A DNA stretch of 64,000 nucleotides from an uncultured delta proteobacterium (GTDB taxonomy: Bacteria > Desulfobacterota > Binatia > Bin18): assembly GCA_963733195.1 (NCBI GenBank), contig CAVTCR010000059.1, forward strand, positions 196,848-260,847, given 5' to 3'. Under the pieces are notes generated by a model that made no database searches, was not told where the DNA came from, and saw only the letters and a program-made list of their open reading frames with translations. Shown in pieces: positions 34,967 to 40,584 of this stretch (its first letter is position 1; every line of letters begins with the position of its first letter). The position numbers were made by a program, and so were the translations under genes.

Positions 34967-37419
34967 TCAGTACAGCACTCGTTCCTCCTTCAATTGTGCA
35001 ATCTGTTGCTCGGAGTAATTGAGTAGTTCGCGCATGACGTGGTCGGTATGTTGGCCTAACAATGGTGCGGGCGATCGCACTCCGTTGGAGGCATTGTACA
35101 GACGCCAGGGAATCCCGGTGTGGGTCTGCACGCCGATCTCTGGATGTGCCAGACGCGCAAAGAACTCACGCTCATTAAGATGTGCATCTTCAGCAAGATC
35201 TTTACAATTCATCGTTGGGAATGCCGCAACCCCCACGGCCTGGAGGGTTCGTGTTACTTCCCACTTGTTCTGCGTTTCAGTCCAAGCGGTAAGCAGTTGG
35301 TCCAAAGCGTCTTCGTTGACCTTACGATCACGCATAGTGAGAAAACGTTTATCGTTCACAAGTTGTGGCTGTCCGATGGTTTGACACAACGCCTGCCACT
35401 CCGCTTCCGTACCGCAAGCAATCGTGACCCACTCCTCTTCTCCTGCACAGCGAAAACAGTTGTGTGGCGCCATCACCGGATCACGGTTCCCGTGTCGCGG
35501 CGGTTGGGTCCCGTTCATGGCATAGTCCATCCAACCTTCAGGCACTAAGGCAGCGACAGCTTCCCATAACGACACATCAATGTACTGACCTTGGCCAGTA
35601 CGTTGCCGTGCTGCAAGAGCTGCACAGATAGCAACCGCAGCATTGATGCCTGCATTTGGGTCACCATAGGAAAGCCCTACTTCCTGTGGAGGACCACCGG
35701 CATAGCCCGTCAACGACGAAAGGCCGGTGAGTGGAGCAATGGCAGGACCATAAGCCATATAATTTTTCTGTGGACCAGTATGACCATAGCCAGAGATGGA
35801 GGCCATGATGATATCCGACTTAATCTTCTTGAGTTCTTCATAGCCGAGCCCCAATCGCTCCATCACGCCAGTTGCGAAATTATCGACAACGACATCACTT
35901 TTAGCGATCAGCTCTTTGGCGATGGCAATCCCTTCGGCTTTCGTCAGATTCACACTGACGCTTTTCTTTCCCAAACTCCACTGATTGAACAAGCCATTCC
36001 GGTCTATCCCGGTTTCACCCCCTTGGGGAACAGCGGTAGACGACGCGTGAGATCGAGGTGACTGCGTGATTCGATCTTGATGACCTCTGCTCCAAGATGT
36101 GCAAGGTGCAATGTACAAAATGGTCCTGCCCACACCCAACTAAAATCGGCTACCCGCACGCCGGCAAGCGGAAGACGAGATCTCGAAGTCCCAAGTGCAG
36201 AGTTCGGAGTTCGATGCCCTTCTTTGACTTGTTTTGAACTTGTTTCGACTTGTGTTGACCTCGCCTCGACTTGCTTGAGACTTGTCTTGACTTCCTCAGT
36301 GTGTTCGCTGAGCAGTGGCGCGGGCCGACGAATCTGCCACCAGGGTTCACGTAGTTGATACGGCGGTCCGAGATGAGAAAGGGTTCCTGCACGCGGATGG
36401 GTGACTTCAACGAAAAAGTGTCGCGAGCGTAGTTGTTCCTGGGTGGCCATTTGCGACATGGTTAGCACCGGGGCAAAACACAGACGCTGTTCCTGTCCAG
36501 CATGAAAGAGGTCCATCACGCGCCACTGCTGCATCCATTCTTTTAAGTGTGGCTTTAACAGGTGTTGGTTTTTTGTTCGCAGCATGAAGTCGCCAAACAA
36601 CTCTGCAGTTGCCCACGACGGATTACCCATCAACGCTAGCAACCGTTGCCATTGGTCTTCTTCTGCGACGGCAACGAAGATGTCGCCATCCTGACAAGCA
36701 AAAATTCCCCACGGGTCTTGCAGGCGTCTTCCTAATCGCGAATTAACCCGGCCAAGAAAGGAATAGGTAACGAAATGGTGCTCTAAAAACGACGCCACAT
36801 AAGCCTGAACAGAGAAGTCGATATGTTCTCCTTGGCCGGTCTGCAAGGCGCGGAAATAGGCGGCAAGCGCTGCAGTCGCCGCAGCTAAACCTCCTTGAAA
36901 ATTGGCTTGATGACCAGCAGCTTTGAGTGGCGGCAAATCTGCCCGGTCCGATCCCCCAGGACTTAACCATGCCCAGCCCCCACCGTGTGCCATTGTCAAT
37001 TCATAGGCTTTGTAATCCTTGTGAGGGCCAGTCAACCCAAACGGCGTAATCGAACACATGACCAAGCGTGGGTTAATCTCACAAAAAGTCGGATACTCAA
37101 TTCCCAGCTCCGCCATTTGTGTAGGAGCATAATTATGGACGAGGAGATCAGCCCAAGCGACTAGGCGAAGGAGCGCCTCTCGTTCCTTGTGTAGGTCTAA
37201 GGTGATCCCGCGTTTATTCGTATTCAGCGCAAGAAACAGCCCGCTCTGTTCCTGATCAACCCTGCCACCAGGAAACGGACCACACTGACGAGCACGGTCG
37301 CCCTCAGGCTCTTCCACTTTGATCACATCTGCACCGAGGTCAGCCATGAGCTTGGTCGCATACGCTGCTGACACCATATTGCCAAGTTCCAAGACCTTTA
37401 CGCCTTCGAGTCCTTGCAT
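34967..37419 (-). CDS. Tandem double-domain family III CoA-transferase (CaiB/BaiF); frameshift near 36010
   Basis: Two LxG.KV/RV...LGA.VIK.E domains in ORF 36004..37419 continuing into 34967..36139. Confidence 0.88.
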
Positions 37420-37551
37420 GCACCTACCCTCCTTTTAAGTTGTAGCGTAGCCTATTGTGCCTGTTTGAGAACTCATGGTGAGGGACGCAATGTTTCTTGC
37501 TACACGACCGTTCCATCGACTTTGTGAATTTCTACAGTAAGGTTACCAGTT

Positions 37552-37760
37552 TCATCTGCCAAGACCTCCACTCCAGGCGAAGCGAAACCCTTTCGCCTGT
37601 GTCACAGCAGAAGCAGTCCGGAAACATCCTTCCGCTGTTGGTCCACCAGAAATGGATGCAGTGTAGCGGTACGGGGTGTCAGGGGTAAGGTCATCGACAG
37701 TTATTTTGCCAGTGAAATCGTGCGTAGCGGTCACTGCTATTTCGCGACGGATTCCTGGAC
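37552..37760 (-). pseudogene. Alkaline phosphatase D (PhoD)-like N-terminal fragment
   Basis: HDFTGKITVDDLTPDTPYRY...G.FRTA...FRFAWSG, then a stop codon. Confidence 0.55.
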
Positions 37761-37990
37761 CATGTGACGTTCCCTCTCGTTATACGGTGGCACGTATGTG
37801 ACGCGCCGTTGAGGATATGTGAGATATAGGTCGGCCTCGCTTCATAGCCGTTGTTCATCACTCTCTCTTTGTTTTTCGATGGTTGGAGAAGGACTTTTAT
37901 CGGGAGGGCGAGGTCGAAGGTTCCCAGAGACGGTACCGGGTGAACCTTCGACTGTACGGTAAGGACTGCACTCCCACGAGCAGAGGTTTT

Positions 37991-38539
37991 CTACAATGCA
38001 GCGGCCCGTGCTTCGTTGCCAATGAGCTTGGCCACAATCGAGTCAATGATCGCATCGGCACGTGACCACACTTCTTCCTTGGTCAGCGGTACGATCGGAT
38101 GGGGAACAGTGATGACTTCGTACGACGGAATGCCGAGATTCTTACACTGCAAGCGGGCAGCAGCAACAAACTCGGTCGTGGAGATATTGGCGGTCGGAAT
38201 ACCATTTTCTTCAAAGTAGGCGACATCGTGCGAACTGCACGATATGCACGACCCTCACGAGCTGACCGCTTCGACGACTCCGTGGCAACGAGAGAGAATA
38301 TCTTTCCTCACTTCTGGTTTGGCCATGCGGGTCGGCGACGGTTTTGCATGGCGCACAACTTCAGCCACACCAAAGCGGTCTTTGAGTAGTGCTTCTACTC
38401 GATCAAGGAAAATGTTGCTGTTGGGAAAGCCGATATCCACCAAAGCGATAGTTTTTCCATTCAGACCGGATAGGCGTGGGGCAAGGGCTTTCTCTGCCTT
38501 CCCACCGTAGCCAATTGGATTGAGCATCTCGTCTGCCAT
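37991..38539 (-). CDS. UGSC-motif selenoprotein (UGA at 38255-38257 read as Sec)
   Basis: ORF 38255..38545 stops at TGA. The frame continues U-G-S-C-I-S-C-S-S-H-D...GIPT...TEF...VPHPI to TAG at 37991. A SECIS-like hairpin follows the UGA. Confidence 0.88.
38223..38245 (-). promoter_or_regulatory. Bacterial SECIS-like hairpin
   Basis: ATATCGTGC-AGTTC-GCACGATGT. The apical loop starts 18 nt after the UGA, with G at loop position 2 followed by U. Confidence 0.8.
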
Positions 38540-38567
38540 AGACATATCTCCTTTCAGTTCCTAGATA

Positions 38568-39650
38568 TCAGTCAACTTGGATACGCTTGCTTACAGGTGT
38601 GCTACCTAAATCATCTGCCACCCATCCCGGAATCGCAGCTGAGAAACGTCCTGCGGTTCCGCCTGCAACCACGACAAAAATCGAATCTGGCGAACGGAAC
38701 TTACGTACACGATCTCCCACCACGAAGCCTTTATCGCCTCCCGCCTTTAACAGCGCAGTGCCAAACCCCTCGCCACCTTCTTTGCCGGGTTTGAGATCAT
38801 CGAGCGAGAGAGTCACATTGTCGTAAAGAAACTGGCGTACATCTTTTTGTGACAATCCATCCGCAGCGATCGTCTGCGCGTGCTCAGGGCTCAATACAAG
38901 AATTGTGTCTCCGAAGAGTGGATAGTTCTTATAGTTCCATAACCCACCACCCATGGTCCGACCGATAGACCACAACAACTGTTCGGCACTACGACTTTGA
39001 AAATCGCTGATCTGTTGCGGGGAACCACCAGCAAAGAGAGTGATCGCGGAGTCATCGGCGCTGAAGCCACGCTCGGTATGAAACGGCTCCCACGGAGACT
39101 CTTCTTCATTCTCAGCGATGACCGCCGTGTATTGACCGGGGTGGCCCATTGTTGCTTTGGTCAGCTCGTGCGGACGTGCCCCACCGATATTCATGATCAC
39201 CAGACGCAGGGCGCGACCGATGGTAGCATTGGCACGAAACCCATGGCCAAGAGCATTGTGGCCGCCGTTGAGACCAATCTGGAATCGGACCGGACCGTTA
39301 ATGATCGCCCACGGCGCAGCCGAGAACAGCGTGACATTCAGGCCGTGCGCACACAATCGTTCGTCACATAAGCCTTCCACTCCGGCGAGCACAACAGGTA
39401 GATACTCTGGCTTGCATCCAGCCATAACCGCGTTAATGGCGATCTTTTCAACTGTAGCTTCACCGTACTGCGGGCCAATAGTGCCAAGTAACTCACCGCG
39501 TGCGCGACCAGGAGCACCTGCAAGCATGCGTTCGACACGGTCTCGGGTCGGTGGCACGACTGGAAGCCCGTCCGTCACTCCTTGTTCATAAAGTTGCTCG
39601 ATCAGATCTTCGGCAGGAATGGAATGCACTGTTGCAGTAGCGGTGGCCAT
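38568..39650 (-). CDS. Conserved uncharacterised protein, partner of the UGSC protein
   Basis: TDGLPVVPPT, TVEKIAINAVMAGC.PEYLPV, RANATIGRAL and AENEEESPW motifs; ends 28 nt upstream of the UGSC start. Confidence 0.85.
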   Translation of the reverse strand: MATATATVHSIPAEDLIEQLYEQGVTDGLPVVPPTRDRVERMLAGAPGRARGELLGTIGPQYGEATVEKIAINAVMAGCKPEYLPVVLAGVEGLCDERLCAHGLNVTLFSAAPWAIINGPVRFQIGLNGGHNALGHGFRANATIGRALRLVIMNIGGARPHELTKATMGHPGQYTAVIAENEEESPWEPFHTERGFSADDSAITLFAGGSPQQISDFQSRSAEQLLWSIGRTMGGGLWNYKNYPLFGDTILVLSPEHAQTIAADGLSQKDVRQFLYDNVTLSLDDLKPGKEGGEGFGTALLKAGGDKGFVVGDRVRKFRSPDSIFVVVAGGTAGRFSAAIPGWVADDLGSTPVSKRIQVD

Positions 39651-39725
39651 AGGTGTCCCCTCCGTCATCGGTCACTCTAGGATGCTGAGGCGCTAATTGC
39701 AAGGATTGCCGGGACCTGTTCCTCA

Positions 39726-39793
39726 ATGATCTACATCAACATACTCTCAACCGGGGAGACCAAAGAGTACACAACCCGGCGGACCGGCTGTAA
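39726..39793 (+). pseudogene. intI: Integron integrase (IntI) extreme C-terminal remnant
   Basis: ATG ATC TAC (MIY), then after a small indel HTLNRGDQRVHNPADRL*, matching the IntI-type terminus MIYTHVLNRGGxGVxSPxD. Confidence 0.65.
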
Positions 39794-40003
39794 GTGCTGT
39801 GTTCCGAAAGGTGATGAGCAAACTAACACAAGCCTCCACAGCCGTATTAGTTTGCAGATTGTGCAAACTAATACGAAGTACTCACTGCGAGTAGAAACGA
39901 GCTAAGTCTTGCCAAACAAAAAAGAATGGCACATGATCCGGGGAATTTTACTACTGGTTTATTTTGCAGAAACGGCAAGGTTTACCGACTTGCTTTGGGC
40001 CAA

Positions 40004-40019
40004 CTAACACGCGTTAGGC
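40004..40019 (+). other. attI-like recombination site
   Basis: CTAACACGCGTTAGGC: GTTRRRY core (40013-40019) with inverted CTAAC, 22 nt before the first cassette ORF. Confidence 0.6.
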
Positions 40020-40041
40020 AAAACAAGGGCAACTAAAAGGG

Positions 40042-40584
40042 ATGAGACTTCGGGAACGATATCGCCGGCTGACACTTTGGAACAAAATCGCTTTCTGGGG
40101 ATCAGTCTCCTCGATCATAGCATTGCTACTCGCAATTGTTCCATCGTTTCAAGAGACTCATCAGGGGGCTAGTCTCTCGCGAATCCTGAGACTTACACCA
40201 GAACAGAAGGTCAAGTTCGTGGAAGTTTTACAGGCTGCACCCAAGCCACGGGAAGGCGTACAACTTGGCTGTGCCGGTGCGGACGAACAAGCCTGCGTTC
40301 TGGCGGGTACTTTTCTCGACCTTTTTCAGAAGGCAGGGTGGACCGTAAGAAGTGATGGAGTTGAGAGAGTCCGACTTTCTAAGCCTAAAGGCGGAGTGGT
40401 TCTCATGAAGCGAGGGGCTACAACAACCCCTCCACCACCTGGGTCGGGCGTGTGGGTGCTTCAGACACCGTCGCTGTTGGTGTTAGAACGCGCCTTTAAG
40501 TCGATTGGCTTCCATACGGAGAAGGCCGCTGATGCCACCATGCCGGAAGGTGTGATCGGAGTGTTTATTGGCCCGAGTGTGTAA
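40042..40584 (+). CDS. Hypothetical membrane-anchored protein (integron cassette gene)
   Basis: 180 aa with one N-terminal TM segment, directly after GTTAGGC. Confidence 0.7.
   Translation: MRLRERYRRLTLWNKIAFWGSVSSIIALLLAIVPSFQETHQGASLSRILRLTPEQKVKFVEVLQAAPKPREGVQLGCAGADEQACVLAGTFLDLFQKAGWTVRSDGVERVRLSKPKGGVVLMKRGATTTPPPPGSGVWVLQTPSLLVLERAFKSIGFHTEKAADATMPEGVIGVFIGPSV

Follow-up and report, generated by a model that had tools for sequence, protein, structure and literature searches.

A UGSC-family selenoprotein gene and its probable partner gene in an uncultured bacterium of the class Binatia

In the established SelB mechanism of selenocysteine (Sec) incorporation, a selenocysteine insertion sequence (SECIS) recruits SelB with Sec-tRNA(Sec) to the ribosome paused at a UGA codon. 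Among the proteins that carry Sec, PrdB and GrdB are the Sec-bearing subunits of multi-subunit reductases. Here we analyze a gene that very probably encodes a selenoprotein of a different family, UGSC. It lies on the minus strand, at positions 37991..38545, of a 64,000-nucleotide stretch of DNA (the window) from an uncultured delta proteobacterium of the class Binatia (contig CAVTCR010000059.1, positions 196,848 to 260,847); coordinates given without a contig name are those of the window. A preliminary description, made from the sequence alone, had called the gene a hidden selenoprotein with an in-frame UGA and a SECIS-like hairpin. To judge from the comparison of homologous sequences, the apparent stop is almost certainly read as Sec. 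The conserved gene directly upstream, which had gone unremarked, probably encodes the working partner of the UGSC protein.

A paper of 2007 refers to UGSC, in the passage concerned, as 'a selenoprotein of unknown function'. In the sections that treat it, the 2008 analysis of the Global Ocean Sampling data counted 255 Sec forms versus 21 Cys forms, guessed a thioredoxin-like fold and ranked UGSC with the commonest selenoproteins predicted from aquatic metagenomes (PMC2398784). Reviews of 2022 and 2026 still list the family in the relevant passages (PMC9312934, PMC13188914), the later one among prokaryotic selenoproteins whose functions 'remain largely uncharacterized'. These passages and the curated hidden Markov models (HMMs) NF041046 and PF24696 bear out the earlier statement that UGSC proteins are a known but functionally uncharacterized selenoprotein family. 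The gene described here is a member of this already catalogued, curated family of unknown function, the 'UGSC-containing protein' of Zhang and Gladyshev. As a selenoprotein gene it is ordinary, such genes having been catalogued since 2007-2008, and its wider value lies in its genomic context.

Under translation table 11, the open reading frame (ORF) 38545..38255 (minus strand, 96 amino acids) stops at TGA 38257-38255. When this TGA is read as U, the frame stays open for 87 more sense codons (UGSCISCSSHDVAYFEENGIPT...) up to TAG 37993-37991, just as the preliminary description had it. The read-through product counts 184 amino acids from the ATG at 38545, with U97 in the motif U97-G-S-C-I-S-C (the numbering used below), and 182 from a second ATG at 38539, with Sec as U95. 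A Shine-Dalgarno-like AAGGAG, read from the sequence at 38548..38553 on the minus strand, makes the 182-residue product the likelier one, since its GGAG core ends 8 nucleotides (nt) before ATG 38539 and only 2 nt before ATG 38545. Database protein P0121 (96% identical) also begins at MADEML, i.e., at the second ATG, and the end coordinate originally assigned to the gene, 38539, coincides with this start. The read-through protein matches the NCBIfam model NF041046, 'UGSC family (seleno)protein', with 132.9 bits (cut-off 125) over profile positions 2-146 of 147, and Pfam PF24696 with 145 bits (cut-off 25) over positions 1-170 of 172.

The Sec codon is strictly conserved. The source genome (6.95 Mb in 87 contigs) contains five UGSC genes, each with one in-frame TGA in the same column, within a U-G-[SGA]-C motif. 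In a set of 61 genomes, made up of the source genome and 60 relatives, UGSC is present in 56, with up to 12 matches per genome. Exactly one TGA occurs in each of the 150 matches listed, another 95 in the relatives lying outside that list. For closer comparison, the five paralogues were combined with 40 genes fetched from relatives, and in all 45 the TGA occupies the same codon. U97, G98 and C100 of the U97-G98-S99-C100 motif are invariant in these sequences and, on the 3' side of the Sec codon, so are C100, D107, F126, G138, H149 and P150. Homologues had been expected to carry UGA or Cys at this position, and both are found: natural full-length fusion proteins have Cys in place of Sec (C-G-S-C in P0157 and P0186, C-G-A-S in P0146). 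P0121 has W, which is consistent with a gene call that reads TGA as W. In 17 of the 43 UGSC genes whose end is seen, one of them in the source genome, TGA also serves as the ordinary terminal stop, so the organism does not read TGA as a sense codon generally. A search for homologues of similar length returned only 2 near-full-length relatives, because gene callers stop at the TGA; standard ORF callers split UGSC genes, and many database entries are half-ORFs or TGA=W translations. The family is strongly expanded in this class, with 2-9 matches in each of the 36 relatives of the same taxonomic family and 12 in one genome of another. Four or more sub-families can be told apart by motif; in place of the second Cys, C103 of S-C-S-S-H-D, they have W, S, G or A.

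Immediately past the Sec codon, within the coding sequence, the minus strand can form a hairpin (38223..38245) that is identified as a SECIS by folding, covariation and consensus rules. Its 5' arm, AUAUCGUGC (38245-38237), and 3' arm, GCACGAUGU (38231-38223), form a stem of nine pairs, one of them U-G, around the loop AGUUC (38236-38232). The hairpin starts 9 nt after the UGA, and its loop 18 nt after the A of the UGA, confirming the stem and spacing reported before. The proposed fit to the bacterial SECIS model also stands: the hairpin satisfies all four rules of the consensus as given in the relevant passage of PMC13188914, and its stem covaries among the homologues. That consensus was modelled on the formate dehydrogenase genes of E. 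coli and on further selenoprotein genes of bacteria, and the element resembles it in the five-nt loop with G second and then U, the 9-bp stem, the 18-nt spacing and the folding energy of -19.4 kcal/mol. This energy, calculated for a 63-nt stretch alone, corresponds to z = -2.13, and 6 of 200 shuffled sequences fold as well. The single-sequence fold is thus only modestly better than chance, suggestive and not decisive. A scan of 37900-38650 against Rfam at E up to 10 gave no match; no curated family there covers this SECIS element.

Comparison of the homologues is more informative. The ungapped alignment of the 45 genes over 60 columns shows the core stem (columns 23-27 with 33-37) paired in every sequence; in the window, the conserved core is UCGUGC (38242-37) with GCACGA (38231-26). 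Three stem pairs show both-sided changes, which replace U-A by A-U, G-U or G-C in 12 sequences, G-C by C-G in one sequence and C-G by G-C in 10; G29-U30 of the loop is invariant. The covariation score of the stem is 0.266 versus 0.082 in shuffled alignments, none of 500 shuffles reaching 0.266, and it is lower in all six slid controls. Changes in the stem accompany changes in the encoded peptide, from S-C..H-D to S-W..H-D, S-S..L-D or A-A..A-D, which indicates that pairing is maintained at the peptide's expense. Hairpins are also found in selD and in two PrdB-like genes of the same genome; they have 8 bp and triloops GGC, GUC and GUG, which start 17-18 nt after the respective UGA. The UGSC hairpin can close A28-U32, which gives the same G-U-N triloop.

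The preliminary description had pointed to the genes for Sec synthesis and insertion as a test of its proposal. Three components are above their cut-offs and apparently intact: selB (397.8 bits, cut-off 242), selD (375.1 bits), which itself carries an in-frame TGA (A-A-G-U-A-G-K), and tRNA-Sec (70.7 bits), to which ARAGORN assigns the anticodon TCA and which adjoins selA. The selD gene lies at C81:171240-172166, directly after selB. The fourth component holds up only in part: selA (C11:21654-22992) scores above its cut-off, with 360.9 bits, but is spread over three frames. Other genes of the assembly are frame-broken too, namely a PrdB-like gene on contig C62, a paralogue of the partner gene on C77 and the second CoA-transferase gene of the window, and for this reason the breaks in selA are read as consensus errors of the assembly, which we consider the likelier explanation. 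In 7 of the 12 relatives searched, including both congeners (G001 and G002), selA is one open frame over the whole profile; the other five are accounted for by three cuts at contig ends, one match short of the profile end and one weak match. The TGA itself is bridged by an independent 461-nt DNA contig from another data set, which spans 38166-38620 with no gaps and 17 differences. TGC or TGT at the Sec codon would have spoken against the original proposal; the bridging contig lists no difference at 38255-38257, 13 of the 17 differences being displayed. Eleven of those displayed fall within the gene, all at third codon positions, and 4 of the 11 lie past the TGA.

The second component of the locus is the upstream gene (38568..39668, minus strand, 366 amino acids), which ends 22-28 nt before the UGSC start. 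The protein matches no Pfam or NCBIfam family, and a Pfam scan of 68 members of its family at E up to 1 gave scattered single matches and no consistent family. The family is very large nonetheless: a word-indexed search returned at least 8000 matches, with 'hypothetical protein' as every source name among the 120 listed, and 5182 representative clusters were obtained in an exhaustive search with E up to 0.001. Among relatives that bear a name, metagenome-assembled genomes of Candidatus Binatia come closest. The ESM Atlas yields unnamed clusters, one auto-named 'Thioredoxin family protein', and a cluster at rank 30 with PF24696 on 16% of its members. Invariant residues are D33, P36, A83, G84, N147, G151, R152, E186 and G336; C85 and the motif G-L-P-V-V-P-P-T are nearly so.

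Association between the two genes is close. A partner paralogue stands beside each of the five UGSC genes of the source genome, and a partner gene is found within ±1.7 kb of 39 of the 40 UGSC genes in relatives (30 upstream, 9 downstream), on the same strand in all 39. In the one exception, the contig ends on the flank on which the partner is found in that sub-family. Match counts per genome, which are not exact copy numbers, are equal for the two families in 45 of 61 genomes and within one of each other in 57 (Spearman 0.955); four genomes have neither family, and in the single genome with just one of the two it is the partner. Over 41 pairs, pairwise identities of UGSC proteins correlate with those of the adjacent partners at r = 0.947, a value to which shared ancestry contributes and which none of 2000 permutations reaches. 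This correlation suggests that UGSC-partner modules duplicate and diverge as units.

The two proteins are also found fused. In a survey of 25 representatives, chosen by length from 150 listed, four are UGSC-partner fusions, seven consist of the C-terminal half of UGSC and the partner, being ORFs that start past the Sec codon of a fusion, and one has the partner followed by UGSC that ends just before the Sec position. In four others the partner is joined to AhpC/Redoxin domains, of which the two read carry C-P-T-C and C-A-T-C, and in one to the catalytic β chain of ferredoxin-thioredoxin reductase (FTR; FeThRed_B). The remaining eight are without any Pfam domain, three of them (P0123, P0130 and P0140, about 715 amino acids) with a tandem-duplicated partner domain. 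In P0131 and P0135, where a thioredoxin-fold domain precedes the partner, the linkers have in common the motif G-C-[AG]-S-R-x-H, which is reminiscent of UGSC's U-G-S-C...H-D. The likeness could be accidental, or the motif could be what is left of the Sec loop. A 'UGSC/Unknown_1' fusion is mentioned in a passage of the 2008 study (PMC2398784), and Unknown_1 is probably the partner family. This is the only mention of the pairing that we found in the searchable literature.

Structure prediction adds to this picture. The AlphaFold2 (AF2) model of the UGSC protein is a single domain that spans the TGA, with a mean predicted local distance difference test score (pLDDT) of 92.3 and a predicted template-modelling score (pTM) of 0.86. 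Five parallel beta-alpha units make up the model, in which U97 stands at the N-terminal end of helix 98-113, and the predicted fold is of the Rossmann/flavodoxin-like type. Fold searches with Foldseek and VIA retrieved only generic Rossmann-, flavodoxin- and CheY-like chains (best VIA Z 10.9, 257 chains at Z >= 8). The listed Foldseek matches and the 50 VIA rows include no thioredoxin-fold chain, though such a family may exist beyond them, and no PrdB or GrdB chain occurs among the listed fold matches. When the UGSC alignment was used for a sequence-profile search of the PDB, only chance matches came back (best E 0.69). The partner is also modelled with confidence (pLDDT 89.3, pTM 0.90), and neither Foldseek nor VIA found a clear solved relative for it. 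The best Foldseek candidate, class I fumarate hydratase 7xky_A (E 1.1e-4), was rejected with TM-scores of 0.27/0.32 and a root-mean-square deviation (rmsd) of 16.5, and so was the best from VIA, 1fnk_A (Z 5.7, rmsd 3.0, 90 aligned residues), none of 48,161 chains reaching Z >= 8.

A complex was modelled from the window's partner, with its alignment, and P0121 as the UGSC chain. Its interaction prediction score from aligned errors (ipSAE) is 0.72, versus 0.03 for the best of three controls; of 157 solved complexes 116 reach this mark, as do 2 of 215 mismatched pairs, counts that are only rough because the alignment was our own. Between runs, at least 87% of contacts are the same, and the partner pLDDT is at least 87. 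To the predicted interface UGSC contributes the Sec position, its invariant N-terminal Pro and residues 4-12 of P0121, and the partner contributes residues 39-42, 65-82 and 156-163. The model thus supports binding between the UGSC protein and its partner.

The Sec-bearing region of UGSC has a probable, distant homology to PrdB and GrdB, as judged from profile comparisons, which falls short of family membership. The NCBIfam GrdB-family models match UGSC residues 71-159 at E 0.002-0.01, the best scores being 17.2 bits for TIGR01917 (cut-off 602) and 16.2 bits for TIGR01918 (cut-off 65.45); PF07355 gave no match at E 0.01 or better. With hhalign, the UGSC profile aligns to one PrdB-like selenoprotein of the source genome at E 2.3e-4 (probability 44%) and to an 8-sequence profile at E 5.8e-4 (probability 29%). 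In either alignment U falls on U and G-I-P-T on G-I-P-T; only the profile-profile one also matches H-P to G-H-P. The source genome has two short PrdB-like (PF07355) genes with in-frame TGA, in motifs U-G-L-C and U-P-V-C, at C73:107334-108040 and C62:33100-33980, both with SECIS hairpins. The C62 copy has a frame break past its G-I-P-T motif, and most database relatives of these genes are 171-residue ORFs that end at the Sec codon.

One could envision the following scheme. The hairpin would act as a bacterial SECIS, bringing SelB-Sec-tRNA(Sec) to the ribosome paused at UGA 38257-38255, and SECIS-directed insertion at U97 is what the comparison of homologues points to. U97-G-S-C100 would sit at the helix N-terminus of a Rossmann/flavodoxin-like Sec subunit, whose Sec loop and invariant N-terminal Pro motif might dock on the most conserved surface of the partner, formed by G-L-P-V-V-P-P-T, the helix with A83-G84-C85, and N160. 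There, near C85, the UGSC module could deliver or accept reducing equivalents; a redox role of the small module is suggested by the fusion of CxxC thioredoxin-fold domains and of the FTR β chain to the same partner domain. We consider it likely that UGSC is the small Sec/Cys subunit of a two-subunit enzyme of which the partner is the large subunit, and not a free-standing redox protein. Whether its chemistry resembles that of selenoprotein B of the D-proline and glycine reductases is more doubtful, and we advance the analogy only tentatively. The selenol would then attack or reduce a substrate held by the other subunit, C100 would resolve the Se-S bond, and re-reduction would follow. The presence of five paralogous pairs in different metabolic neighborhoods suggests different substrates.

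Several observations weigh against one or another part of this interpretation. Compared with its congener G002, selA carries insertions of 1, 1 and 2 nt; if these breaks were real, Sec could not be made. A single independent contig bridges the TGA, and with 4 of its 17 differences not displayed the identity of the codon is not strictly proven by reads. Contigs from RNA libraries cover parts of both genes and not the TGA, and may stem from DNA carry-over. Because the hairpin overlaps the conserved S-C-x-x-H-D of the peptide, its conservation is in part due to constraint on the coding sequence. In the modelled complex, the UGSC chain is a homologue with W at the Sec position, used without an alignment, and C85 of the partner is not among the contacts named. 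The link to PrdB and GrdB is weak, with hhalign probabilities of 29-44% and 15-17 bits against cut-offs of 65-800, and the pyruvoyl proprotein family (PrdA/GrdE type) gave no match to the partner, which leaves an analogy with PrdA/GrdE unsupported. Finally, the literature passages searched contain no experimental selenium evidence for any UGSC protein.

Some of these points bear on alternatives. The TGA could be a genuine stop, or result from a sequencing error or the decay of a pseudogene, with the 87 downstream codons untranslated in frame; frame breaks do occur elsewhere in the assembly, and the z of -2.13 for the hairpin alone is unimpressive. Such a reading appears highly improbable, given that 45 of 45 homologues share the codon position of the TGA and that each of the 150 listed matches has one TGA. 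Family HMMs and a single confident fold span the codon, invariant residues follow it, the displayed differences of the independent contig past it fall at third positions only, and the hairpin covaries. A genetic code in which all TGA codons are sense codons (code 4 or 25), with no Sec, might be invoked for database entries that give W (P0121, P0276 and P0300). Its probability is practically negligible, as TGA ends 17 of 43 UGSC genes, one of them in the source genome, as tRNA-Sec with its TCA anticodon, selB and selD are present, and as the natural replacements are Cys and not Trp or Gly.

A different case is that of a selA inactivated in this lineage, which would make the UGSC gene a former selenoprotein gene that now yields a truncated peptide of 95/96 residues. 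The split over three frames and the three small insertions relative to G002 are what one would expect. Yet the SECIS hairpin persists in at least eight genes for selenoproteins (selD, five UGSC, two PrdB-like), all of which except the C62 PrdB-like gene also have an open frame past the UGA; selA is intact in both congeners, and similar breaks in unrelated genes point to consensus indel errors. We regard this loss as quite improbable. It is also unlikely that UGSC acts on its own as a thioredoxin-like thiol/selenol oxidoreductase on general substrates, the guess made from the ocean metagenomes in 2008, and that its neighbor is functionally unrelated. Like the redox motif of thioredoxins, UxxC does sit at the N-terminal end of a helix, but the protein is predicted to have five parallel beta-alpha units, and its listed fold matches are flavodoxin-, CheY- and Rossmann-like. 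The adjacency of the partner in 44 of 45 cases, fusions in both orders, co-divergence and a complex model that passes its mark speak for a dedicated pair. Selenocysteine at U97, in a protein that probably works with its neighbor, remains our preferred interpretation.

The wider surroundings of the modules are varied. Comparison of the neighborhoods of the five UGSC modules in the source genome did not reveal a shared third gene; the neighbors encode CoA-transferases III, an aminotransferase, luciferase-like monooxygenases, a 2-hydroxyacid dehydrogenase, a P450, an aldo-keto reductase and BKACE. A scan of 37300-40100 for promoters and terminators gave fewer sites than shuffled sequences and none between the partner and UGSC genes. 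Downstream of UGSC in the window, on the same strand, lie two family-III CoA-transferase domains (34967-37419, minus). Their ORFs overlap by 136 nt, and the last part of the first ORF encodes the N-terminus of the second domain; the pair is either a tandem pair with a frame break or a broken fusion. Elsewhere in the assembly, the partner paralogue at C77:20056-21007 is split into two tblastn pieces, a further frame break, and the UGSC modules of C77 and C41 are surrounded by many short ORFs, consistent with assembly indel errors.

Because UGSC has a partner that is nearly always present, diverges along with it, is often fused to it and belongs to a very large family, its function is open to direct tests. 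In the broadest view, to which we give an even chance, UGSC and its partner of about 350 residues would represent an undescribed and very widespread class of two-subunit selenoenzymes. Such a class would comprise a Sec subunit distantly related to PrdB/GrdB and a catalytic subunit whose fold has no solved relative. This soil lineage would harbor 5-12 co-evolving cognate pairs with different substrates, and fused modules of thioredoxin-fold or FTR type would supply the catalytic subunit with electrons in other lineages.

How, then, does the locus compare with described systems? Relative to the UGSC family, nothing essential is different in this gene: it shares the U-G-S-C motif, the length of about 180 residues, the Sec/Cys alternation and a SECIS right after the UGA. 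Its local features are the five paralogues in one genome and the second-Cys sub-families with compensating hairpin changes. Unlike the general bacterial consensus, the SECIS element has a sequence peculiar to the family and at the same time encodes S-C-S-S-H-D. With selenoprotein B (PrdB, GrdB/F/H), UGSC appears to have in common a UxxC at the start of a helix, an E-x-x-G-I-P-T motif and a later H-P, but it is without the N-terminal part of about 150 residues found in PrdB-like proteins and scores far under the family cut-offs. Like the thioredoxin-fold selenoproteins (Prx-like, Trx-like and SelW-like), it bears a redox motif, UxxC or CxxU, at a helix N-terminus. In contrast to thioredoxin's mixed sheet, however, its predicted structure is an all-parallel, five-stranded alpha/beta/alpha sandwich. 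Elsewhere, CxxC thioredoxin-fold domains replace UGSC in fusions with the same partner domain.

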